Of a stretch of DNA of 32,000 nucleotides, positions 1,443-29,495 are shown piece after piece; position 1 is the stretch's first letter; each line of letters starts with the position of its first letter. The translations under genes and the position numbers were made by a program. Origin of the DNA: Candidatus Methylomirabilis oxygeniifera (GTDB lineage Bacteria > Methylomirabilota > Methylomirabilia > Methylomirabilales > Methylomirabilaceae); the NCBI GenBank assembly GCA_000091165.1, contig FP565575.1:2100001-2132000 (forward strand). The letters are read 5' to 3'. Below the pieces are notes generated by a model. That model was not told where the DNA came from. It ran no database searches and worked only from the letters and a program-made list of their open reading frames with translations.

Positions 1443-1692
1443 GGCTACGTATGGCGTAGCTCCTGTAGGTAATCACCGGGAGTAAACCAGAGAGGCGTAG
1501 AGTGTGCCCCTCTTGTCGGCTTCCCTAACTGAACGTGGACATACTGATGAGAAAGAAAGGGTGGGCTGGCCGGTACGCGGGGATTAGTATGAGAGACTTT
1601 CGCTTAGAAAGGTGTTATGCGTCTTGTATGACGTCCCGGATTTTTGGTGCACGGTTTCAGTACGTCCGGATAACACAAAGGAGGTTATTGCC

Positions 1693-3621
1693 GTGAACAA
1701 GCGTTACCTGAAGGTTGCGGGTGTGGTCGCCCTGATCCTCGTGGTCACGGCCGTAGCCTTTCTACCGTTCTATTGGAATCCCAAGAAAGCTTCTAGTCAG
1801 GTGATCTTCAGTGACTTTATAGACCTAGTGGAAAAGGGGGAGCTCGCCGGAACGGTGATCTTCAACGAAAACAGCCACACCCTTTACTTCCATATCGCTT
1901 CAGGACAGCACCTGCGGACAGTGTACAGCAAAGAGGCTACCGCATCTCTACAAGAGCTGCTGAAGCAGAAGGGCGTCCACTTTGCTGTTGAGCCACAAAG
2001 CGGAGGCTCAATCTGGGTCAGCCTGTTATTCAACTTCCTGCCCTTCCTTCTGATTATCGGACTGTTTGTGCTGATGAGCCGACGGTCCCAGATGGGGGGT
2101 GGTGGCGGCGGTCCGATGGCATTCGGAAAATCAAAGGCCAAACTCCACGACGCATCCAAGCCCAAGGTGACGTTCGCGGACGTCGCCGGAGAGGAAGAGC
2201 CAAAGGAAGAGCTGCTGGAGGTTATTGAGTTTTTGAAACATCCTCAAAAGTATCAGGCGCTGCACGCCAAAATCCCAAGAGGATTGCTGCTGGTAGGTCC
2301 CCCAGGCTGCGGAAAGACGCTCCTGGCCAAGGCCGTTGCCGGGGAGGCCGGGGTCCCCTTCTTCTCGCTTTCCGGTTCCGAGTTCGTGGAGGTCTTCGTC
2401 GGTGTGGGCGCCAGCCGCGTCCGCGATCTGTTTGAGCAGGCCAAGAAGAACGCCCCGTGCCTGGTCTTCATCGACGAGATCGACGCAGTAGGTCGCCACC
2501 GCGGGGCCGGCCTTGGTGGCGGCAATGATGAGCGCGAGCAGACGTTAAACCAACTACTGGTGGCCATGGACGGCTTTGAGGCCAATATCGGGATCATTGT
2601 GATTGCCGCCACCAACCGACCGGATATCCTGGATCCTGCGTTGCTGCGCCCAGGGCGATTTGACCGGCGCATCATCGTGGATAACCCGGACAGCAAAGGC
2701 CGTAAGGCGATCCTGCAAGTGCACCTGCGCGAGATACCGCTGGCAGCAGACGTCAACGTTGACGTGCTCGCCAAACAGACGCCTGGATTTTCAGGAGCGG
2801 ATCTTGCCAGCGTGGTGAACGAGGGGGCGCTTTTGGCTGCCCGGCGCGACAAAGACCGCGTCAGTATGGTCGACTTTGACGAGGCGGTCGAGCGAGTCAT
2901 TGCGGGGCCGTTGCGCCGCAGTCGCGCCTTGACTCCGAAAGAGCGCGAGATGGTGGCCTATCATGAAGCCGGCCATGCCATCCTGCGTAAGCTCCTGCCT
3001 AAGGCCGATCCGCCCCATAAGGTGACGATTGTCTCGCGCGGGATGGCGCTTGGCTATGTCATGGGAGCACCGCCGGAGGACCGCTACACCCGGACGCGCT
3101 CCGAACTGATGGCGGAGGTCAGTGTCGGCATGGGTGGCCGTGTCGCCGAGGATCTGATCTTCGGCGAGATTACCACCGGCGCCTCAAATGACTTTGAGCA
3201 GGCCACCAACATGGTGCGCCGAATGGTGACCAATTTCGGGATGTCGGATAAACTCGGTCCGGTGACCCTGGGTAGACAGGGCGGTCCCGTCTTTCTCGGT
3301 CGCGATATGATCGACAGTAGAAACTACAGTGAGGAGATCGCCTACCAGATCGACCAGGAGGTCCGCCGGATCATCGATGAGTGCTACCAGGTGGCCCGCC
3401 AGGCGATCGAGACAAACCGCGAGAAACTGCAGCGGGTGGCAAAAGCCCTGATCGAACGCGAAACCCTCTATGCCGAGGAGTTGGACGACGTGATGGCGGG
3501 AAAGGTCGTAGCGCTTGAACCATCGCGGGCTGCCGCCAGTGGTGAAGCAGCGGTTGTCGAGGCCGGCACTGAGAATGCGTCGCCCGCGACGCCGTCGGCG
3601 CCTGCGCCACCACCGGCCTGA
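1693..3621 (+). CDS. ftsH: ATP-dependent zinc metalloprotease FtsH
   Basis: The start was moved to GTG 1693 (AAGGAGG 8 nt upstream) inside ORF 1612-3621. It has two N-terminal TM helices, Walker A GPPGCGKT, Walker B LVFIDEID and the zinc motif HEAGHAI. Confidence 0.95.
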
Positions 3622-3659: not shown

Positions 3660-3706
3660 AACCCTCTCACGGAATTCACACCATCCGTGAGAGGGTTAAC
3701 TTTTTT
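3660..3706. terminator. Bidirectional rho-independent terminator between ftsH (+) and the PmoD-like gene (-)
   Basis: aaccctctcacgg (3660-3672) pairs with ccgtgagagggtt (3685-3697). It is followed by TTTTTT on the + strand and preceded by AAATAAAA, which reads as a T-run on the - strand. Confidence 0.8.
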
Positions 3707-3802: not shown

Positions 3803-4567
3803 TTACGCCGCTTTTTTCTTGCGTCTCACATACAGCACGGCGCCGATTCCCACGCCGGCAACCGTCATCACCAAAATTGCCGGATTGCTCATCATGGACG
3901 GACCGCGCGCGCCCCCCCCCCTGGGTGTCTTCAATCCGACGGTAAAGGGGAAGCTGAAGGTCGAATCGTGTGCATGATACGCCTCCTCTTCCGCTGTACT
4001 GGTATGCTGCTCGGCGCCGTCGTGACTGTGACTGACCGCCTCCGGTGCGTCGCCTCCGGCACGTGATCTCGCTCCCTGCTCCTCAACCTCCAGTACCGCC
4101 CTATACTTCCCGGCTTTTCCGAAATCCGTCTCAGCCCGCACGACACCTGAAGGATAGACCTGTTGAGGGATATACAGAACCGTTTGGGCGTCTTCACGCT
4201 CGGTGGCCTCGACGACGCGGACCGCCACAGGGGTCTTTCGCAGGGCATCGCTGATAAGATCAAACGTCAGCGTCGCCTTTCCTGTTCTTGGAATATCCCG
4301 ACAGTAGGATTGAAACTCTTCCTTCATCGCATCCACGTACCGCCTCAGGTCCGCATCCTTAAGCTCTTTGAGCTGAGCCAGCTGTGAGGCCCGGTCCGCC
4401 GTCCCATGCTGATAGGCGCTGAAGTGAATGAGATACTGCCCTTTCTCCCTCGAACAGAGATCGTTCTCCGTGATCCCACCCATGCCGCCGCCACCGTGAG
4501 CCCATGCCTGCGACGCTCCCATCACAGCCATCAGCGCTACAACTCCAATCGAAACACACTGCTTCAT
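3803..4567 (-). CDS. Secreted, C-terminally membrane-anchored His-rich protein; putative PmoD/AmoD-like periplasmic copper protein (paralogue 1)
   Basis: 254 aa. The signal peptide ends ...GASQAWA and is followed by HGGGG. It carries C38-x7-L-x-H48, EFQSYC, a His/acidic linker (SHSHDGAEQH..YHAHD), SFPFTVGL, one C-terminal TM helix and RRKKK. It lies 300 nt downstream of pmoB on the same strand and has a paralogue at 25467-26243. Confidence 0.85.
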   Translation of the reverse strand: MKQCVSIGVVALMAVMGASQAWAHGGGGMGGITENDLCSREKGQYLIHFSAYQHGTADRASQLAQLKELKDADLRRYVDAMKEEFQSYCRDIPRTGKATLTFDLISDALRKTPVAVRVVEATEREDAQTVLYIPQQVYPSGVVRAETDFGKAGKYRAVLEVEEQGARSRAGGDAPEAVSHSHDGAEQHTSTAEEEAYHAHDSTFSFPFTVGLKTPRGGGARGPSMMSNPAILVMTVAGVGIGAVLYVRRKKKAA

Positions 4568-4800
4568 GGCCTAACCTACTTCCATCGCGACCATCCCCTG
4601 TTGGTCTTTCTCGTACGCTCCCGAAGCACCGCCGTAGTGCATACAACAGATCCCTGCACGCATTGCGTTCACTGAATCGGTCGAGGGAGGTATGTCAACG
4701 AGATTCCGTTCATGGCTCGACAAAGTCCTGACAGGGACGGATGATAAAGGGGATTGTGAGGCACTACACTAACCGTGAGGAATGTTGAATGCGGTGGTGA

Positions 4801-4854
4801 GGGTCCCCCACCCCTTGAATTCTCCGTTATGTGAAGCTCAAGGGGTGGGGACCC
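4801..4854 (-). terminator. Strong GC-rich stem-loop 13 nt after the micro-ORF stop; leaky terminator or 3' mRNA stabiliser of the pmo transcript
   Basis: gggtcccccaccccttga (4801-4818) pairs with tcaaggggtggggaccc (4838-4854), giving a 17-bp stem with one bulged C. No U-tract follows on the minus strand. Confidence 0.45.
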
Positions 4855-4866
4855 TTCCACCTCCAC

Positions 4867-4950
4867 CTATGCCTGGTTCACCAGTGTCATCAGAACAAAT
4901 ATCAGCATGATAAGTAGCGCTAAGTTCATCCCTTGTGCGGCGAATTCCAT
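4867..4950 (-). CDS. 27-aa single-TM micro-protein immediately downstream of pmoB (candidate pMMO-associated peptide)
   Basis: It sits below the 60-aa cutoff of the track, as the C-terminal part of ORF 4867-5130. The ATG at 4950 is preceded by GGAGGGAG with 6-nt spacing and lies 19 nt after the pmoB stop. The peptide is MEFAAQGMNLALLIMLIFVLMTLVNQA. A stem-loop follows. Confidence 0.55.
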   Translation of the reverse strand: MEFAAQGMNLALLIMLIFVLMTLVNQA

Positions 4951-4969: not shown

Positions 4970-6238
4970 CTATTTGTACTGGGTAGTCGGCCGCCATTTG
5001 CCTCCGCCGGACAGGGCCGTTGCGCCACCCTCGAAGGACGGAATGACCGGGCCGCCGACCTCAACAATTTGTCTGTTCTTATCCGCATCAAAGAACTCAA
5101 AGAGTCCGCCGTACCGGCTGTCTGAGTCATAGATCAACTCAGCCAACCGCTGATATTCCCATTCCGCATCGGTCGCATCTATCGACATCGTTACGGTCTG
5201 GCCTGGAGGGATGGGACCGGCCGGCTCCACCTTGATTTTGAGTCGCGAGTCAGGGAAGAGGGCCGGATCCCGAAACTGCAGGTTGGCCGTGATGAATCCT
5301 CCCAATTGCTGAGGCCTGTTTGAACCGTTTGTGACCTCTATCACCATCCCAAGAGAACGTCCAGGTACGGTATAGACCGCTGTGACAGGCCTGGCCTTCA
5401 CCGTGGCATGGGAATACGGCGTAAACTCTGTCGTGGGCTTCAGTTCGGGAGTATCCATCCGACCGGTCTGCAGCGGGATGGTGATTGGGTAGGCGCCGTT
5501 CGTCGTGACGTAGCCGATAGCGACGATGAGGACCGTGGCGATCATCAGTACGAGTCCAAGCGTCCGATCGCCGGGGCTAACAAGCTCCTCCTCAGGTACC
5601 ACTCCCACCTGGAAGAGACGTCGCGTAAATGGCCGTCGTACCCACCACAGCAACCAGAACACACCGACAAAAGTCCAGAGGAGCCACCAGCCGATGATCC
5701 GACCTTGCCCATGGACCTCCATATTCACTGTCGTACCATCAATGGTGGTAACGTTATTGGTGAAGTTACTCCAGTCGCCATCGACGGTGACGAACTCGCC
5801 TCCACCGACCAGGGGCCCTCCACCCTCGATATTCACCATCGGGTGAACGTGATAGGTCCCGGTGACCCGGCCCATAATATTCATTCTATAATCATAGTCT
5901 CCGCCAAGTTGAGTACTGGTGGCGTTGATGACCGGCATGCCATTCATCCATGCCTCTTTCTTGAGCATTGATGGCCCAGGCACGGAGTAATGGAGAAAGA
6001 TCGATTCGGGGGTGTTTACGGCCCTCGGCCATTCACTAAATGTATGGAACTTTCCCGTCAGATCCATGGTCTCGCCAGGCTGTACCCGAGCTTTTGACCA
6101 TTTCGTATCGTAGAACGTTATTGTACGCATCCGAAGAAACGGCTCTTGCGATCGCTCGCCATGCGCCCATGCCGTTCCAGCGGATACGGCGATCACTCCA
6201 AGCAAGATCGCCGACAACGCCGCTCGTCCTATCCTCAT
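4970..6238 (-). CDS. pmoB: Particulate methane monooxygenase subunit B (PmoB)
   Basis: The start was moved to ATG 6238 (GGGAGGAT SD 5 nt upstream) within ORF 4970-6295. The signal peptide ends ...SAGTAWA, then HGERSQEPFLRMRT. It has the YHVHPM His motif, two TM helices (WWLLWTFVGVFWLLWW and LGLVLMIATVLIVAIGYV) and a C-terminal cupredoxin-like domain. Confidence 0.95.
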   Translation of the reverse strand: MRIGRAALSAILLGVIAVSAGTAWAHGERSQEPFLRMRTITFYDTKWSKARVQPGETMDLTGKFHTFSEWPRAVNTPESIFLHYSVPGPSMLKKEAWMNGMPVINATSTQLGGDYDYRMNIMGRVTGTYHVHPMVNIEGGGPLVGGGEFVTVDGDWSNFTNNVTTIDGTTVNMEVHGQGRIIGWWLLWTFVGVFWLLWWVRRPFTRRLFQVGVVPEEELVSPGDRTLGLVLMIATVLIVAIGYVTTNGAYPITIPLQTGRMDTPELKPTTEFTPYSHATVKARPVTAVYTVPGRSLGMVIEVTNGSNRPQQLGGFITANLQFRDPALFPDSRLKIKVEPAGPIPPGQTVTMSIDATDAEWEYQRLAELIYDSDSRYGGLFEFFDADKNRQIVEVGGPVIPSFEGGATALSGGGKWRPTTQYK

Positions 6239-6348
6239 CGTTATCCTCCCAGGTTCGTGGGTAAGCGTCAACACATTCGCATCATAGCGCCACATGGGGT
6301 TGCCTTATAGCCTTCCATCGAGAACCCCACGGCCCACATCGATGACAA

Positions 6349-7080
6349 CTACGTCCGCGAGATCCATGCCGGCCTTGAGATTACCTTCCCCATCCACACC
6401 CACCAGAGGTAGATAATTCCACTAATAAATCCGGCGAAGAACGAGGAAACCGGCGTAACGTCGCGCCCGAATGTTCGCAGCGTCCCCCGCTCCACGATTC
6501 GGATATACTCCGGCGTGGCGGAGCGCACATACTCCATCCCCATCAGATCAGCGATGGACATGAGCGGCCCGCTGGGATGCTTCACGGCCAAATGAAATGG
6601 CGCCAGCCAGGTCCAGTTCGCCGGATAGAACAACAGGGACCACCCCATGCCACCGAACAGTGCCGTAAACATGTAGCTTCCCGTCATCATCAGCATCACG
6701 TCCAGGAAGATCGCACTGGGGATCATCAGACCCGGGGCGGTAAAATTGACCGGAAACCAGGCCCAATAGTAAAAGTTAAAGACACGATTCATCCATTGTC
6801 CGAAGTGAAGCGTCATCACGCAAAAGGTCGCACCGATCGGCAGACGCATCTTCTCCCACATGAAATATTGCGTCGCCGCAGGGAAGGTAATCAACAGGAT
6901 CGGCGTCAACGTGACCCACCAGCGCCGATCCTTCCAGTCCAGCCAGAAGTCCCAGTCGCCAACGGTCAGCATCTGGTGGATGTGGTACCCCGCAACTGTA
7001 CCTGTGAACGCAGCCACTATGACAATAATATCAAACTTGCGCTCCAGGCTTAGAGCTTGCTGTTGTGTCAAAAGCGCCAT
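6349..7080 (-). CDS. pmoA: Particulate methane monooxygenase subunit A (PmoA)
   Basis: The start was moved to ATG 7080 (GAGGAGGGG SD) within ORF 6349-7143. The product is a 243-aa polytopic membrane protein with the characteristic ...MLTVGDWDFWLDWKDRRWWVT... motif. Confidence 0.95.
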   Translation of the reverse strand: MALLTQQQALSLERKFDIIVIVAAFTGTVAGYHIHQMLTVGDWDFWLDWKDRRWWVTLTPILLITFPAATQYFMWEKMRLPIGATFCVMTLHFGQWMNRVFNFYYWAWFPVNFTAPGLMIPSAIFLDVMLMMTGSYMFTALFGGMGWSLLFYPANWTWLAPFHLAVKHPSGPLMSIADLMGMEYVRSATPEYIRIVERGTLRTFGRDVTPVSSFFAGFISGIIYLWWVWMGKVISRPAWISRT

Positions 7081-7186
7081 AAGCTCTTCCCCTCCTCGAA
7101 GGGAGGGGGGGGGAGCAACCACCCCCCCTCCACATTTGGTCATGTAGACTTTGGGGACCTCAAAAAACGATCCTCAACGAGTATCG

Positions 7187-7963
7187 TTACGCGGTCGCCT
7201 TACCACCGCTGGTGATCCTGATCAACTCAAAGATCCGCGGACACATCGCCGCCGCCACGCCATACACCCCAAACAGACACCAACCCAGCGTGACAAAGCC
7301 CCAATGCAGCGGCGCCACAAACAGCTCTTCCATGATCCAGAAGGTGTGACCCCACTCGTTCAGCGCGACATTGACAAAGATCATCGCAGGGCCGCCGACC
7401 GTGAGCATGAACGGGATCGAGTGGGCCTTCGAAAATAGGGGGAGTCGGGTCCGGGCCCACATGTAGGCGCTAATCCCGATGATGATGTAGATCGGGTAGC
7501 TGAGATAGAACTCAATGATGTGGCTCGGCGTAAAGTCCGTATCGCGGATCACCGTCTGGTGCCACGTCCCGTCCTGCTCGGTAAAGAAGCTGGCGCCCCA
7601 ATACACCGCCCAGGCGAACGTCGCGATCCACTGCCCGAGACCCCAGAACCGCCTGAGCTCCTCCTCCGGCGTAATTTTATCGAGGTTCCGGTCGCGAGTC
7701 TTCCAGATGTACCCCAGGGCGAAGGTCAGCACCGCCCCCTCGATAATCAACTCCCCGATCAACATGTTCCACCAGTAGATCCGGAAGTCCTCGGAGAAGA
7801 AGTCGAGGCCTTTCGACCAGGAGAAGTACTGCTGGTAAATCCGAATCATAACGTAGAAGATGCTAATAGCTATCTGACATTTAAAGAAGGTGCCCCAGCC
7901 AAACATCTGCTCGACTGACTCGGCGCGCTTAGCCGGCGCAGCTTCCGTCCTGTACTGTGCCAT
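7187..7963 (-). CDS. pmoC: Particulate methane monooxygenase subunit C (PmoC)
   Basis: 258 aa, with AAGGAGGAAGG SD before ATG 7963. Conserved PmoC motifs RDTDFTPSH and NEWGHTFWIMEELFVAPLH are present. Gene order C-A-B is canonical. Confidence 0.95.
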   Translation of the reverse strand: MAQYRTEAAPAKRAESVEQMFGWGTFFKCQIAISIFYVMIRIYQQYFSWSKGLDFFSEDFRIYWWNMLIGELIIEGAVLTFALGYIWKTRDRNLDKITPEEELRRFWGLGQWIATFAWAVYWGASFFTEQDGTWHQTVIRDTDFTPSHIIEFYLSYPIYIIIGISAYMWARTRLPLFSKAHSIPFMLTVGGPAMIFVNVALNEWGHTFWIMEELFVAPLHWGFVTLGWCLFGVYGVAAAMCPRIFELIRITSGGKATA

Positions 7964-8185: not shown

Positions 8186-8276
8186 GTCCTTTTTGCCTTC
8201 CGAACCCTGTTCCAACCTTGATCACATTGACACCTGCATCCGAGCAATACTGAAGACAACACTAAGACTTTAATAC

Positions 8277-8291
8277 GCAAGGATGGTGCCA
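8277..8291 (-). promoter_or_regulatory. Sigma-54 (-24/-12) promoter upstream of pmoCAB
   Basis: Minus strand reads TGGCAC-catcc-TTGC, an exact match to the TGGCAC-N5-TTGC consensus. It lies about 315 nt upstream of the pmoC ATG and 131-154 bp downstream of a repeated palindrome. A sigma-54 activator gene is adjacent. Confidence 0.6.
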
Positions 8292-8421
8292 AACGTAGTG
8301 GCAATCGGTATTGAGCCTACTTTCACCAGTGAAATCAAGAGGTTCAAATAGTGACTTCAAAGAAACGCCATGGGTCGCAACAGAATTTCTAGTTAATTTT
8401 CATTAGAACGCCCCACCCTGC

Positions 8422-8445: not shown

Positions 8446-10116
8446 TCAGACTGAGTCAATCTGCGTCTGTCGTTTCAGACCAAACTGCTCCAGTTTGCGA
8501 TACAGCGTACTGCGGGAGATGCCGAGCTGGGCCGCGGCCTGCGACAAATTCCCCGCACATTGCTGGACGATCTGACAGATGAGCTGCCGTTCGGTCTGCG
8601 CGAGCCAGCCGCCGGGCTCCGGCCGCTCGGAGGCCTCCCCGCGCAGGGTGCGAATCGCCTCGGGAAAGTCGTCCCAGCGGATCTCGGGCCGCGGCAGGAG
8701 CACGCCCACCTGCTGCAGGACATTGCGCAGCTCCCGGACATTGCCGGGCCACGGATACGGGGTGAGCGCGAGCGCGCGCAGCGCCTCCTCCGTAAAGCGC
8801 AGGTCCGGGCAGTGCAAGGCGGCGGCGACATCGGCCAGGAAGGAGGCCGCCAGCAGGGGGATATCCTCCCGCCGCTCCCGCAAGGGCGGCAGGTGGATCG
8901 AAATGACATTGAGCCGGTAGTACAGGTCCTCCCGAAACAGCCCCTTGGCCACCTCTTTGAGCAGGTCTTTATTGGTCGCGGCGATGATGCGGACATCGAG
9001 GGGGACCGGCTGGCCGCTCCCTAGTCGGGTGAGCTCCTGCTGCTCCAGCACCCGCAGGAGCGCCACCTGGGTGCTGGGCGAGCACTCGCTGACCTCATCG
9101 AGGAAGAGGGTGCCGCCCTGGGCCTCTTCGAACCGGCCCGACCGGCCGCCTTTGCGCGCGCCGGTAAAGGTGCCGTCTTCATAGCCGAACAGCTCAGACT
9201 CGATCAGCTCCCGGGGGATGGCACCGCAGTTGACCGCGATGAACGGCTTGGGGGCGCGGGGGGAGCTGGCGTGGATCGCATGCGCGAGCATCTCTTTCCC
9301 GGTCCCCGATTCCCCGGTGATGAGGACGGAGAGGGTGTTGCCGGCGGCGATGAGGCCGATCTTGGTCGCGTTGCGGAAGGCGGCGGACTGCCCCACCAGA
9401 TCGGCAAAGGTGTACTTGGCCCCCACCACGATCGCCTTGGGCTTGCGGGGGACGGGCGGCTCCAGTCGGGCGGTCGGAAAGAGCACGGCGGCGGCGACCA
9501 CCTGCGAGCCGTGCCGGAGCGCCAGGCCCCAGGCCGTAAGGAGCCGGCCGCTACGCCCGCAGTAGACCTTGACCTCCTGGGGGCTGGAGGGGGCACGGGT
9601 CAGCAGGGTGCGGCCGACCTCGGCCAGCTCCGGGATCGCCGCGACGGAGGGCCGGGCGGGGTCGAGCTGCAGCAGGTGCGCGGCGGCCCGATTGCACAGC
9701 AGCACCTGCCCCTGCGGATCCAGCACCAGCAGGCCGTCGCTGAGCAACTCCGCGGCGGCGGTGAGCGGCCCCAGCAGCGCCTCGGCAGCGCGCGCCGGCG
9801 GGACGTCGGGCAACGGCGGGGCGAGGAGCGAGCCGGCTAAGAGCTCGATCACCAGATCGCTTTGGACGTGGGTGCGGCAGAGCAGGACGTGGCCCTGGGC
9901 CTGCTCGCTGGCGGAGAGCACGTGATCCGGCGGCGCGACCAGGTGGGCCTGGCCGCTGCGGAGGCGGGCCTTACAGCCCCCGCACTCGCCGTCCGCGCAG
10001 CGGTAATCGACCAGGCGCAGGCCCTGGCGCAGGGCGACCTGCAGGACCGACTCGGTGTCGTCACACTCGATGGTGATGCCCAGCGGTTCAAACCGGACCT
10101 TGCGCATCCGCGTCAT
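8446..10116 (-). CDS. Sigma-54-dependent transcriptional activator with N-terminal 2Fe-2S ferredoxin-like domain and PAS-like sensor region
   Basis: The N-terminus has C-ADGE-C-GG-C ... LLC (a plant-type Cx4Cx2C..C pattern). A PAS-like LLVLDPQGQVLLCNRAAAHLL follows. The AAA+ domain has Walker A GESGTGKE, GTFTGA (a GAFTGA variant) and GGTLFLDEV. The C-terminal Fis-type HTH is LSQAAAQLGISRSTLYRKL. ATG 10116 has AGGAG 9 nt upstream; an alternative GTG at 10182 overlaps the helicase stop (GTGA). Confidence 0.9.
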   Translation of the reverse strand: MTRMRKVRFEPLGITIECDDTESVLQVALRQGLRLVDYRCADGECGGCKARLRSGQAHLVAPPDHVLSASEQAQGHVLLCRTHVQSDLVIELLAGSLLAPPLPDVPPARAAEALLGPLTAAAELLSDGLLVLDPQGQVLLCNRAAAHLLQLDPARPSVAAIPELAEVGRTLLTRAPSSPQEVKVYCGRSGRLLTAWGLALRHGSQVVAAAVLFPTARLEPPVPRKPKAIVVGAKYTFADLVGQSAAFRNATKIGLIAAGNTLSVLITGESGTGKEMLAHAIHASSPRAPKPFIAVNCGAIPRELIESELFGYEDGTFTGARKGGRSGRFEEAQGGTLFLDEVSECSPSTQVALLRVLEQQELTRLGSGQPVPLDVRIIAATNKDLLKEVAKGLFREDLYYRLNVISIHLPPLRERREDIPLLAASFLADVAAALHCPDLRFTEEALRALALTPYPWPGNVRELRNVLQQVGVLLPRPEIRWDDFPEAIRTLRGEASERPEPGGWLAQTERQLICQIVQQCAGNLSQAAAQLGISRSTLYRKLEQFGLKRQTQIDSV

Positions 10117-10178
10117 CCTCGTGGACTCCTGGGGGGTCCCCTGCCGTCCGGCGGGCACGCCGGACGGCATCGGGGGGC

Positions 10179-11402
10179 TCACGCCCCCTCGGTTTCCGCC
10201 GACTTTCGACCCTGGCGCACGCTATTCGCGGCCACCGCGGCACCGGCAGCTACCCCTGGGGCAAACGCCGATTCGTCCGGCCACTGCACAGGAATCTTAA
10301 ACCCGATGTACCGCTCGATCGCATCAAGCGACAGCACATATTCCTCGTCAGCCAGACTGATCGCCTTACCGGCTGCCCCGGCCCGCGCCGTTCGTCCGAT
10401 CCGGTGGACGTAATCTTCCGGGTCCTGCGGGAGGTCGTAGTTGATCACGTGACTGACCGCCTCAACATGCAACCCACGCGATGCGACATCGGTCGCCACC
10501 AGGATCGGCAGCGTGCCCGCTTTGAACTTGGTGATAATCTGGAGGCGCTTACGCTGATCGATGCTACCGCTGATCAGGCCCGCCCGGAAGCCGCACCGGA
10601 CCAACTTATCAGTGAGCCGCTCGGCGCCCTGCCGAGTATTCGAAAAGATCAGGATCCGTTGCCACGCCTCGCGCTGAAGCAACCAGCGCAACAGCCGGAA
10701 TTTTTCCTGCTTCTCGACGTGAAAGAGCAGATGTTCAACCTTGTCGACCGTAACCTGTTCCGGGGAAATGGCGACCTTAATCGGATTATTCATAAACTCG
10801 TACGACAGCTCCATCTCTCGAAATGAAAGCGTCGCCGAAAACAGGAATGACTGACGCTTATGGTAGGGGGGGAGCCGCCTCAGCAGGAAGCGAAGGTCCT
10901 TGATGAACCCCATGTCGAACATCCGGTCGGCCTCGTCCACAACCAGGACTTCGACTTGAGAGAGTTCGTAGACCCCCTGCTTGAAGTAATCGATGAGCCG
11001 CCCGGGTGTTCCGATGAGGATATCGACGTTCTGTTGAAGCGCGTCCCGCTGTTTCTGATAGTCCACCCCTCCATAGGCTGCGAGCCGTGTCAGGCCGGTG
11101 AATCCACCCAACAACTCCGCATCCCACAGGATCTGCACGGCCAGCTCACGCGTGGGCGCCAGGATCAGGGCTCGGGGGGCGCCGGAAAGCGTAGGGTGTC
11201 TTGAAGTGAGTAGTCTGACAAAGAGGGGGATCAGGAAAGCGGCTGTCTTACCGCTGCCGGTCTGAGCTTGCCCGGCAATATCTTTCCCCGCCAGGGCGAG
11301 CGGCAGCGTCTCAGCCTGGATCGGTGTACACTGAGTAAAACCGGCCGCCTCTATTCCCCTCGCGATCGACGCGGGAAGTGAAAAGGTGTCGAAGGTCGTC
11401 AT
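10179..11402 (-). CDS. DEAD-box ATP-dependent RNA helicase
   Basis: 407 aa. Motifs seen: Q-motif ...GFTQCTPIQ, AQTGSGKT, PTRELA, DEAD, SAT and HRIGRTARAG. Confidence 0.92.
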   Translation of the reverse strand: MTTFDTFSLPASIARGIEAAGFTQCTPIQAETLPLALAGKDIAGQAQTGSGKTAAFLIPLFVRLLTSRHPTLSGAPRALILAPTRELAVQILWDAELLGGFTGLTRLAAYGGVDYQKQRDALQQNVDILIGTPGRLIDYFKQGVYELSQVEVLVVDEADRMFDMGFIKDLRFLLRRLPPYHKRQSFLFSATLSFREMELSYEFMNNPIKVAISPEQVTVDKVEHLLFHVEKQEKFRLLRWLLQREAWQRILIFSNTRQGAERLTDKLVRCGFRAGLISGSIDQRKRLQIITKFKAGTLPILVATDVASRGLHVEAVSHVINYDLPQDPEDYVHRIGRTARAGAAGKAISLADEEYVLSLDAIERYIGFKIPVQWPDESAFAPGVAAGAAVAANSVRQGRKSAETEGA

Positions 11403-25466: not shown

Positions 25467-26243
25467 TCAGGCTGGTTTCTTCCGCCTGCCGTTCATATAG
25501 TATTTGACGCCACCCACCAAGGCGCAAATAGCCAATAATGTGATCGCCAACTGGAACCCCAGATTCGACACCAGCCAAGGCAGGCGACTGTGTGCCCTTA
25601 CCGCCAGGCCTACGGAAAACGGGAAGCTGTAGGTATGGTCTACAGCTTTGATCTGGGCCTCTGTAGGATCGGTTCCGGGTCCATGGGTATGGCTGACTCG
25701 CTGCCATTCTCCAACCTCTGAGCCTCGATGAGGCTTGTGGGCAATGCCAGGTCCCGCCTTCTCCAGTGTCATGAGGGCAATGTAGTGCCCGGGCTTGGTG
25801 ATTTCGGTATCGATCCTGATCGACCCATCACCGTAAACAGCCGCGGGAAGGGAAAAAACAGCGTGGGAGTGTCCGCCACCTTCAGTGTCCTCGTGAGCCG
25901 CAACAGCCTCAACAATTCGAACCGAGATGGGAAGCGCTCGCATCTCCTCATTATACAGGTCAAACGCGATCGACAACTTGCCTGTCTTCGGGACCCCTTC
26001 ACAGTAAGACTGGAACTCCTTCTTGACCTGCTCCGACCCCACTTCGTGCATCAGCGGAATCATTCCCGCGCCGATAAGCTCCTGATAGGCAGTGAAGTGA
26101 ACGGTATAATGGCCCTTCACTGCGGTGCAAGCATCTGCCGCATCCCAGTCACCCATCACATCGCCACCGCCGTGACCAAAGGCCTGAGATGCCACAAAAA
26201 CCGGCACGAGCACGACCGAGAATAACAACATCAAGCGCTTCAT
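25467..26243 (-). CDS. Secreted, C-terminally membrane-anchored His-rich protein; putative PmoD/AmoD-like periplasmic copper protein (paralogue 2)
   Basis: 258 aa, with AAAGGAGAGGAG SD. The signal peptide ends ...VASQAFG and is followed by HGGGD. It carries C39-x7-T-x-H49, EFQSYC, VRIVEA, SHTH, HTYSFPFSVGL, a C-terminal TM helix and RRKK. It is collinear with 3803-4567. Confidence 0.85.
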   Translation of the reverse strand: MKRLMLLFSVVLVPVFVASQAFGHGGGDVMGDWDAADACTAVKGHYTVHFTAYQELIGAGMIPLMHEVGSEQVKKEFQSYCEGVPKTGKLSIAFDLYNEEMRALPISVRIVEAVAAHEDTEGGGHSHAVFSLPAAVYGDGSIRIDTEITKPGHYIALMTLEKAGPGIAHKPHRGSEVGEWQRVSHTHGPGTDPTEAQIKAVDHTYSFPFSVGLAVRAHSRLPWLVSNLGFQLAITLLAICALVGGVKYYMNGRRKKPA

Positions 26244-28037: not shown

Positions 28038-28067
28038 TTGCATTGTCGAGGATCAATACGATACAAT
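28038..28067 (+). promoter_or_regulatory. Sigma-70-like promoter for hao, overlapped by a 7-bp inverted repeat
   Basis: TTGCAT (28038-28043), 18-nt spacer, TACAAT (28062-28067). The inverted repeat GCATTGT..ACAATGC spans the -35 to the -10. Confidence 0.55.
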
Positions 28068-28133
28068 GCCGTCTATCCGGAGAACAATCATCGTCCGTTC
28101 GGCGGGATGCAGGAAAAGCCGGGACACGTTGTC

Positions 28134-29495
28134 ATGAGGCATAGCAATCGAAGGTGGAAATGGCGACTGGTTCTCGCAGTCGCTGCCTTGCTCGCGGCCG
28201 CACTACCGTGGGGTTCAGCCGTAGCGGCGGACCGCCCGTATTTGTCGCATGGGGCCGGCGCCTATCGGGATCAGTGGCAAGCACCCTCGGTCTATCAATG
28301 GCTCGATCCGAATCTCTTTACCTCCAACAATCCCATTCAGGGGGTCTTCAACGGGGAGGCATGTGTTGCCTGCCATGCCGGGGTTACGCCGACGATCGTC
28401 AACGATTGGAAAATCAGCAGACACGCGCCGGCCAAGGTCTACTGTACGGCCTGTCATGGCAACGACCACCAGAAGCTCTCCATGCCGAAACCGGAGACCT
28501 GCGAAGGGTGCCACAAGACCCAGGTCTCCCAATATAAGGAGGAGTTGAAAGCCGGCCACCCGGCTCATGCGCGCGCCATGGACCCTGACGTATATCGCAA
28601 TGCATGGCAGATGCATAAGCCGCAGGCCGAGGTCGTCGGATGCGCCCAGTGCCATCGGATCGGGAGCGTCGGGTGCGATAGCTGCCACACGCGCCATAAA
28701 TTCTCGGCGGCTGAAGCCCGCAAACCCAGCGCGTGCATGAGCTGTCACAGCGGGGTCGATCATCGGGACTACGAGGTCTGGGAGAACTCCAAGCACGGCA
28801 ACATCTGGCAGGCTGAGACACAGGACACGGATTGGACCACGCCGCTCCAACGCGGTAACTACCGGTTCCCCACCTGCGCCTACTGCCATATGCCCGGAGG
28901 CGACCACAACACGGTGCGTAACACTGTCTATGCAGGCATGGGGACACAGGAGGTCAACCGCGGGGCGCCGGAACATCAGGCCAAGCGGGACCGGTGGATC
29001 GGAGTATGCGGCGATTGCCACTCCTCCAGATTTGCTCGAGCACAGCTTGATTACATGGATGAAGCCGTCAGCGTCAGCTTCAAGAAGGTGCGGGAGGCAA
29101 AACGGATTCTCGAGGATCTGTACAAAGAGGGGATCATGGAACCGATGCCGCAGTTCCTGGCCCCAGGATGGAAGGGCGGGCATGCGGCGGCCTTTGGCGG
29201 CATGAACTATAACGTTCCGGCCATCGAGCGGCTCTTTTATGAAATGGTCGCCTTTGCCACCACTAATACGTTTAAAGGGGCGGCGCACGGCTCAGGCGGC
29301 GCCGCCACGTATACCTTCGGCGCCTTCGAGGCCGACAAGTACCTGGCCGCCATCAAGAGCGAGGCCGAGAAGATGCGGCGGATGGCCAAAATCGAACAGA
29401 AGGTCGGCGTGCCGTATCAACCGTCAGAGTTCTGGAAGCACGGCGAGTACACCGATACCCTCAAGGTTATCAAGGAACCGAAAGATGAGCGCTGA
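28134..29495 (+). CDS. hao: Octahaem cytochrome c, hydroxylamine oxidoreductase (HAO)-like
   Basis: Eight CxxCH motifs: CVACH, CTACH, CEGCH, CAQCH, CDSCH, CMSCH, CAYCH, CGDCH. The signal peptide is MRHSNRRWKWRLVLAVAALLAAALPWGSAVAA. A ...CGDCHSSRFARAQLDYMDEAV segment is typical of HAO. ATG 28134 was chosen (alternative 28107); the track start 28038 coincides with the predicted promoter -35. Confidence 0.9.
   Translation: MRHSNRRWKWRLVLAVAALLAAALPWGSAVAADRPYLSHGAGAYRDQWQAPSVYQWLDPNLFTSNNPIQGVFNGEACVACHAGVTPTIVNDWKISRHAPAKVYCTACHGNDHQKLSMPKPETCEGCHKTQVSQYKEELKAGHPAHARAMDPDVYRNAWQMHKPQAEVVGCAQCHRIGSVGCDSCHTRHKFSAAEARKPSACMSCHSGVDHRDYEVWENSKHGNIWQAETQDTDWTTPLQRGNYRFPTCAYCHMPGGDHNTVRNTVYAGMGTQEVNRGAPEHQAKRDRWIGVCGDCHSSRFARAQLDYMDEAVSVSFKKVREAKRILEDLYKEGIMEPMPQFLAPGWKGGHAAAFGGMNYNVPAIERLFYEMVAFATTNTFKGAAHGSGGAATYTFGAFEADKYLAAIKSEAEKMRRMAKIEQKVGVPYQPSEFWKHGEYTDTLKVIKEPKDER

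Follow-up and report, generated by a model that had tools for sequence, protein, structure and literature searches.

The window analysed here, 32,000 nucleotides of contig FP565575.1 (positions 2,100,001 to 2,132,000 of the forward strand), belongs to Candidatus Methylomirabilis oxyfera, a nitrite-dependent methanotroph. The open reading frame (ORF) at 3803-4567 on its minus strand is the known pmoD gene, which comes fourth among the protein genes of this organism's pmoCAB-pmoD cluster. The genes pmoC, pmoA and pmoB lie upstream of it on the same strand, and their orthologues in related loci carry the Pfam domains AmoC, AMO and Monooxygenase_B. A preliminary description of the ORF, made from the sequence alone, had proposed either a highly divergent PmoD with a replaced methionine ligand or a new copper-handling family serving particulate methane monooxygenase (pMMO).

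The translation of the ORF was 100% identical, residue for residue, to entry 2517504423 (DAMO_2446) in Supplementary Data 3 of Fisher 2018. DAMO_2446 is annotated as "pmoD" in the genome (PMC6189053), and the row in Supplementary Data 2 gives pmoD of Methylomirabilis oxyfera FP565575 at 2103803-2104567(-) with 765 bp and 254 aa (PMC6189053). The same row lists the value 1 for 'PmoD in CuMMO operon', the neighbourhood 'cabd' and the class Cx9HxnC, along with the residues H1 = H, C1 in the context LCS, L (YLI) in the M column, H2 in the context IHF and C2 = C (PMC6189053). The PmoD/AmoD family is defined by three elements, namely a signal peptide, a periplasmic domain in which two cysteines are strictly conserved, and a C-terminal helix; it is subdivided by motif, the Cx9HxnC subgroup comprising 22% of PmoDs (PMC6189053). 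The gene is thus already known, being annotated, present in the published family table and assigned to a subclass whose representative binds copper without forming CuA; no papers on DAMO_2446 by locus name were found in a literature search. Few proteins have a genetic link to copper-dependent methane and ammonia oxidation. As PmoD is one of them, the attention given to the gene was reasonable, but nothing new is added for this locus.

The homology tests were in agreement with the catalogue entry. In the phmmer search of the protein against the Protein Data Bank (PDB), the sole match was PmoD of Methylocystis sp. Rockwell (6CPD) with an E-value of 2.2e-6, and the family profile matched the same structure at E 1.8e-11. 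The HMMER profile aligned the N-terminal segment GDLCSVEKGQYLVHFSAYQH with GNMCMVMFGYDMIHITVFQP of 6CPD, resulting in the residue pairs C38 = C41, G43 = G46, L46 = M49, H48 = H51 and C89 = C65. With the AlphaFold2 (AF2) model, the top Foldseek matches were 6cpd_A/B (E 1.2e-6, probability 1.00, target-normalised TM-score 0.63). All the remaining matches had E-values of at least 9e-3, and those of the nearest cupredoxins (AcoP, laccases) were at least 0.036. The canonical profile, built from six proteobacterial PmoD/AmoD/AmoE sequences only with the NC10 clade left out and used with Z = one million, gave the ORF a score of 100.3 bits (E 4.3e-27); among all ORFs of the window it matched only this one and the paralogue at 25467-26243. 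The BLASTP alignment with MCA2130 of M. capsulatus (30% identity, E 1e-16) began in the signal peptide and ran on to the end of the core. The profile and Foldseek searches resulted in a confident match to PmoD and in none to an unrelated non-metal family. The proposal of a PmoD with a replaced Met ligand was therefore borne out, the homology to 6CPD covering the ligand segment as well as the cupredoxin core, whereas the attribute 'highly divergent' had to be dropped for a protein that is catalogued and already classed as Cx9HxnC. Membership in the PmoD/AmoD family is contradicted by nothing that was found.

Pfam and NCBIfam scans of the protein gave noise only, with no Pfam match below E 0.07, and no CopC, PCuAC or other copper-protein family model was matched in the Pfam scan. 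The same scans of the canonical proteins MCA2130, AmoD NE0941 and AmoE NE0942 gave no family match either. The lack of a library match results from the absence of a PmoD model in Pfam and NCBIfam and not from divergence, and as a sign of novelty it was ruled out, since the canonical proteins are equally unmatched. The missing model in Pfam-A and NCBIfam also explains the 'hypothetical protein' labels which the family carries in public records.

All the sequence features listed in the preliminary description were present in the ORF: the SQAWA end of the signal peptide, H24-GGGG, C38-x7-L46-x-H48, C89 (EFQSYC), the stretch SHSHDGAEQH...YHAHD, SFPFTVGL, the C-terminal helix and RRKKK. The signal segment has Lys2, hydrophobic residues within positions 1-23 and A21-W-A23 directly before His24. 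The signal peptide is predicted to be cleaved between A23 and H24 because of the A-x-A rule, the hydropathy profile and the family-wide conserved A/HG junction (the slash denotes the cleavage position). The coordinates of the segments and of the neighbouring features are presented in Table 1.

Table 1. Features of the pmoD region and of other parts of the window.
Feature	Position	Strand	Details
ftsH	1612-3621	plus	convergent with pmoD
Inverted repeat aaccctctcacgg / ccgtgagagggtt	3660-3697		13 bp, perfect; T-runs on both strands; 12-nt loop; read from the sequence
pmoD (= DAMO_2446)	3803-4567	minus	ATG at 4567; 254 aa, 765 bp; Cx9HxnC-class PmoD
C-terminal transmembrane helix, residues ~229-247, then RRKKK	3812-3883	minus	hydropathy maximum 2.11; model helix 229-253
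FSFPFTVGL strand	3932-3958	minus	family-wide FPFxVG motif; AF2 strand 203-210, pLDDT ~80
Clade-specific His/Asp/Glu-rich loop, residues 165-200	3968-4075	minus	conserved H188 and H198; predicted disordered
Cupredoxin-like beta core, residues 86-164	4076-4312	minus	Cys89 (= Cys65 of 6CPD) at 4301-4303
Clade-specific insert, residues ~54-84	4316-4408	minus	low-confidence predicted helical hairpin
C38-x9-H48 ligand segment	4424-4456	minus	L46 at the position of CuA ligand Met49 of 6CPD; profile alignment GDLCSVEKGQYLVHFSAYQH / GNMCMVMFGYDMIHITVFQP
Predicted mature N-terminus His24-Gly-Gly-Gly-Gly	4484-4498	minus	'H1' of the PmoD family; invariant H24, G25-27
Signal peptide (predicted), residues 1-23	4499-4567	minus	MKQ / hydrophobic core / SQAWA; Kyte-Doolittle peak; A-x-A at -3/-1
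RNA hairpin, very stable	4791-4866	minus	directly after the micropeptide stop codon; minimum free energy -50.8 kcal/mol
Micropeptide ORF (MEFAAQGMNLALLIMLIFVLMTLVNQA)	4867-4950	minus	27 aa, single transmembrane helix; 19 nt past the pmoB stop; strong GGAAGGAGG ribosome-binding site
pmoB	4970-6295	minus	
pmoA	6349-7143	minus	
pmoC	7187-7963	minus	
Sigma-54-type promoter element TGGCACCATCCTTGCG	8276-8291	minus	TGGCAC-N5-TTGCG; ~315-330 nt upstream of pmoC
Sigma-54 activator gene	8446-10182	minus	N-terminal 2Fe-2S ferredoxin (Fer2) domain; directly upstream of the promoter element
Second pmoD paralogue	25467-26243	minus	258 aa; AFG/HGGGD...ACTAVKGHYTVHF (C-x9-H)...QSYC...FPFSVGL

Among 5.8 billion proteins searched, 72 relatives were found, nearly all of them carrying either no name or an NC10/Methylomirabilis label. 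The xWA/HGG junction was present in 65 of the 72 homologues, and the other seven all deviate from the norm of about 255 aa, most of them appearing to be N-terminally truncated. C-x9-H was found in 68/72 and one of FPFTVG, FPLRVG or FPLTVG in 70/72. The residues invariant in 27 relatives were H24, G25-27, C38, G43, H48, F49, A51, Y52, Q53, C89, P93, G96, H188, H198, F206, V210 and G211. C38 and C89 were also invariant in 65 clade members and in the comparison with MCA2130, AmoD and AmoE, which agrees with the earlier designation of C89, the equivalent of Cys65 of 6CPD, as a second conserved cysteine; H188 and H198 were at least 90% conserved in the 65 sequences. NC10 sequences were also aligned across the family, with MCA2130, another PmoD of gammaproteobacterial origin, AmoD and AmoE; the columns invariant there were H24, G25, C38, G43, H48, Y52, Q53, C89, P93, G96, D103, R110, G141 and V210.

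Two motifs of the preliminary description were retained only in part. The residues of its Cx7LxH motif exist, but position 46 (C1+8) was occupied by L, I, F, T, Y, V or S in 68 relatives and in none of them by Met, so that what is conserved is Cx9H...C. The mature N-terminal His, which had been likened to that of PmoB, is real, and PmoB in this window has the corresponding A/H junction (...GTAWA/HGERS). However, this His is the published H1 column and a family trait, not a PmoB-like peculiarity, because A/HG is common to AmoD (VQA/HGG), AmoE (VWG/HG) and MCA2130 (LWA/HGGG). In the rows available from the published PmoD table, the H1 column is His in 27 of 35 (PMC6189053). Among the features compared, only the insert of about 27 residues and the His/Asp/Glu-rich loop appear to be specific to the NC10 clade, as judged from the alignments.

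The insert lies between His2 and Cys2 and corresponds to a 26-residue gap in the alignment with MCA2130. It was missing or shortened in the relatives P0065-P0072 and missing in all the proteobacterial PmoDs aligned. In the AF2 model it consists of helices 56-66 and 71-83 with a predicted local distance difference test (pLDDT) score of about 45-58. The His/acid-rich loop, which is about 35-40 residues long and precedes the last strand, was likewise not present in the aligned proteobacterial PmoDs. The FPFxVG motif of the last strand aligned with IPFKVGV of MCA2130 and FPFAVGT of AmoD. The mean pLDDT of the model was 60 and that of the core about 75-90.

The architecture of the protein is that of PmoD Met49242_1452 of Methylocystis sp. 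Rockwell (6CPD), which also has a signal peptide, a periplasmic cupredoxin-like domain and, at the C-terminus, a transmembrane helix, and whose gene directly follows pmoCAB. The invariant cysteines C41/C65 of 6CPD correspond to C38/C89, His51 to His48 and Gly46 to Gly43. The differences are a sequence identity of 19% over the fold alignment, Leu instead of Met49, the lack of Met42 and Met44, and the two additional segments described above; in addition, the mature N-terminus of the Rockwell protein is Glu (H1 = E). The Cx9HxnC PmoDs MCA2130 (M. capsulatus Bath) and MettrDRAFT_0370 share with the protein WA/HGGG, C-x9-H, VHFTAYQ, YC..IP.TG, [FI]PFxVG and the transmembrane helix, but are without both clade-specific segments, and the proteobacterial genes of this class are usually located near copC or elsewhere, outside the pmo operon (PMC6189053). 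AmoD (orf5, NE0941) and AmoE (orf4, NE0942) of Nitrosomonas europaea have the same architecture with the invariant H1-G, C1, H2 and C2, and are encoded directly after amoCAB. In contrast to the NC10 protein, they belong to the classes Cx8MHxnC and Cx7MxHxnC, respectively, and at 184-211 aa they are shorter, the NC10 insertions being absent. Neither in sequence nor in fold was a relationship with CopC or PCuAC detected.

For the formation of CuA, Cys41, Met49 and His51 are needed, and CuA is confined to Cx7MxHxnC members (PMC6189053). The Met49Ala substitution in Rockwell PmoD abolishes CuA formation (PMC6189053). In the protein studied here, C1 and the His at C1+10 are present as the invariant C38 and H48, whereas the Met at C1+8 is absent, and a CuA site is therefore not expected. 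The Cx9HxnC representative MettrDRAFT_0370 of M. trichosporium OB3b binds 1.40 +/- 0.18 Cu and forms no CuA.

By comparison with these proteins, the NC10 PmoD would be exported by the Sec pathway, and cleavage behind Ala23 by signal peptidase I would make His24 the N-terminus. The C-terminal helix would tether the protein to the cytoplasmic membrane with RRKKK on the cytoplasmic side. The periplasmic cupredoxin-like domain may bind roughly one copper via the putative ligands His24, Cys38, His48 and possibly Cys89, and would form no dimeric CuA centre of the kind found in the Methylocystis operon PmoD, behaving like the tested Cx9HxnC member (1.4 Cu, no CuA). Additional copper capacity may be provided by the His/acid-rich loop of the clade. 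We infer that the protein binds copper and supports pMMO by copper supply or maintenance, or by another copper-dependent function. Such a role matches the copper-dependent growth defect caused by the disruption of pmoD in Methylosinus trichosporium OB3b.

As a whole, the gene is very probably best explained as encoding the catalogued Cx9HxnC PmoD, a tethered periplasmic copper support for pMMO without CuA. Several points weigh against this explanation. The two invariant cysteines are disulfide-linked in the 6CPD crystal, as the caveat of the preliminary description had aptly anticipated, and the copper site observed in the crystal is considered an artefact (PMC6189053). Moreover, 29% of PmoDs retain only the two cysteines (PMC6189053), therefore His/Cys copper ligation may not be the universal function of the family. 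The mature N-terminal 13 residues, the insert and the His-rich loop were modelled at pLDDT < 50, and a second AF2 model (mature domain, 65 sequences) gave no gain in confidence for these regions; due to the low pLDDT of the N-terminus, no geometry of the His24/Cys38/His48 site is readable from the models. Furthermore, a gap of 402 bp lies between the pmoB stop codon and the start of pmoD and holds the micropeptide ORF and the -50.8 kcal/mol hairpin. Apart from the cysteines, no residue of the family is universally conserved; this, the intramolecular disulfide of 6CPD and the PmoDs devoid of the other ligand residues are the grounds for a different reading, in which the cysteines would act as a structural or redox-active disulfide and the protein would be mainly a non-metal accessory, either a membrane-anchored Ig/cupredoxin-like module which stabilises or organises pMMO or a thiol-disulfide partner. 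This is considered unlikely, as copper was bound in vitro by every PmoD class tested, the Cx9HxnC and CxnC-only representatives among them, conservation in the NC10 clade extends beyond the cysteines to His24, His48, His188 and His198, and no PmoD was seen bound to pMMO or ammonia monooxygenase (AMO) in cryo-electron microscopy (cryo-EM) work.

An electron-transfer PmoD of the CuA type, dimerizing via two Cys38 thiolates around a mixed-valent Cu2 as in the operon PmoD of Methylocystis sp. Rockwell, and tolerating Leu46 at the axial position, would be in accordance with the exact alignment of Cys38 and His48 with the CuA ligands and with the same in-operon position as that of the CuA-forming PmoDs of alphaproteobacterial methanotrophs. 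The loss of CuA in Met49Ala, its restriction to the Cx7MxHxnC class and its absence from the tested Cx9HxnC protein make this very improbable, and the Met position is not even conserved in the 68 clade members; Met42 and Met44 are absent as well. Still less probable is that the FPFTVG motif, spacer, helix and RRKKK constitute a sortase/exosortase-like sorting signal, the cleavage of which would release or re-anchor the domain. The C-terminus matched LPXTG-anchor models weakly (E 0.14-0.28), and AmoD NE0941 scored 22.2 bits against a cut-off of 15.9. However, the matches are restricted to the generic combination of a helix and a basic tail, FPFTVGL is modelled as a beta-strand integral to the domain (pLDDT ~80) about 18 residues ahead of the helix, and the C-terminal helices of PmoDs were detected in membranes by proteomics (PMC6189053); the sorting signal was rejected for the generic nature of the matches and the assignment of FPFTVGL to the domain. 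A new copper-handling family with a merely superficial resemblance to PmoD has a negligible probability. The unmatched Pfam/NCBIfam scans and the two long segments not found in proteobacterial PmoDs could be taken in its favour, but canonical PmoD, AmoD and AmoE are also unrecognised by these libraries, the sequence, profile, reverse-profile and fold comparisons point uniquely to PmoD, and the exact protein is part of the published PmoD dataset. This second alternative of the preliminary description was consequently abandoned in favour of the catalogued Cx9HxnC PmoD.

The N-terminus of the catalogued PmoD offers one of the two leads with some novelty, the other being the micropeptide described below. 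PmoB (CuB), CopC and the histidine braces of the lytic polysaccharide monooxygenase type share with the protein the A-x-A end of the signal peptide and His as the first mature residue, as seen with the AWA/HGERS junction of PmoB in the window. The N-terminal His of PmoB is a copper ligand, established from pMMO structures. By analogy, the mature His-Gly of PmoDs might form a histidine-brace-type copper site via the free alpha-amine, perhaps together with His48/Cys38; His188 and His198 of the NC10 loop would add further sites, and the in-operon PmoD would serve as a tethered copper donor or buffer for pMMO. We regard this idea as tentative and, on balance, doubtful. In the published PmoD constructs, the N-terminus was extended by Ser-Met (PMC6189053), and due to these two additional residues in the recombinant proteins, a histidine-brace site would have escaped the published biochemistry. 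No papers linking PmoD with a histidine brace were found in a literature search.

The gene order was compared with that of related loci, which are denoted by L-numbers. The order pmoCAB-pmoD was found in nine of them (L001, L005/L006, L007/L008, L009, L011, L015, L019). These include the distant relatives L001 and L007/L008, with 37-38% identity, and the gammaproteobacterial metagenome-assembled genome L019. The convergent ftsH follows pmoCAB-pmoD in L005/L006, L009, L011 and L015, and likewise in L012 from the 3' end of pmoB on; L010 and L014 show pmoD-ftsH on truncated contigs. The pmoD paralogues elsewhere are located after a lone pmoC (L004, L013) or stand alone (L002/L003, L016-L018). In the distant lineage (L001 10880-12575; L007 8033-9706), pmoD is followed by two proteins with CBM_48/AMPK1_CBM domains which flank a sigma-70 factor of the extracytoplasmic function type, and this conserved neighbourhood differs from the ftsH arrangement of Methylomirabilis.

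The co-transcription of pmoD with pmoCAB is plausible. In the pmoB-pmoD gap, the sigma-70 promoter and terminator scan detected neither a promoter nor a terminator on the minus strand, and no family reached the gathering score in the Rfam scan of the window. The inverted repeat downstream of pmoD is likely a bidirectional intrinsic terminator shared with the convergent ftsH; it was missed by the consensus terminator scan because the loop limit of the scan was 8 nt, compared with 12 nt here. Upstream of pmoC, the sigma-54-type promoter element is conserved in L005/L006 and L009. Together with the adjoining activator gene, it suggests that pmoCAB is under redox-sensing, sigma-54-dependent control. 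The small ORF at 8262-8360 (-) was discarded as a gene candidate, being probably the conserved sigma-54 promoter of Methylomirabilis loci read as codons (VWHHPCV). Small ORFs called upstream of pmoC in the related loci showed no homology between lineages.

The micropeptide ORF between pmoB and pmoD was present in every Methylomirabilis pmoB-pmoD gap examined, i.e. in the window, L005/L006, L009, L011, L012 and L015, and absent from the lone pmoC-pmoD gaps and distant lineages examined. In five versions of the micropeptide, the variable columns were distributed 8:1:17 by codon position, and the codon differences were 90 synonymous vs 32 conservative non-synonymous. This pattern of codon positions and synonymous substitutions indicates that the ORF is coding. 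Two variants exist as gene calls of the Joint Genome Institute (JGI), whereas the exact sequence of the window was not found in the protein collection searched, and phmmer against PDB chains gave no meaningful match. Supernumerary helices of 23 residues in pMMO (Methylocystis) and 46 residues in AMO (Nitrosomonas) have been assigned to small ORFs by Tucci & Rosenzweig (PMC11725843). The 27-aa micropeptide is a candidate for the NC10 counterpart of these helices, a type recently seen in cryo-EM maps of pMMO and AMO; no papers on a supernumerary helix in Methylomirabilis were found in a literature search.

The hairpin following the micropeptide had a z-score of -5.9, none of 200 shuffled sequences being as stable, and it lacks a T-run. 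A GC-rich inverted repeat at the same position was also found in L005, L009, L011, L012, L015, L001 and L007. Situated between pmoCAB and pmoD, the hairpin may serve to stabilise the transcript or to attenuate it.

The second pmoD paralogue of the window was 34% identical to the first, matched it in phmmer at E 2.8e-35 and was matched by the canonical profile at E 2.8e-22. Its motifs correspond to the published row of DAMO_2470, 'pmoD (singleton)' (PMC6189053), and its neighbours are not pmo genes but a fumarase-class lyase and a prolyl-tRNA synthetase (ProRS). A multi-haem cytochrome of 485 aa (28038-29495, plus strand; Pfam Multi-haem_cyto and Cytochrome_C554) is encoded a few kb from this paralogue and is possibly related to the hydroxylamine-oxidoreductase-type cytochromes.

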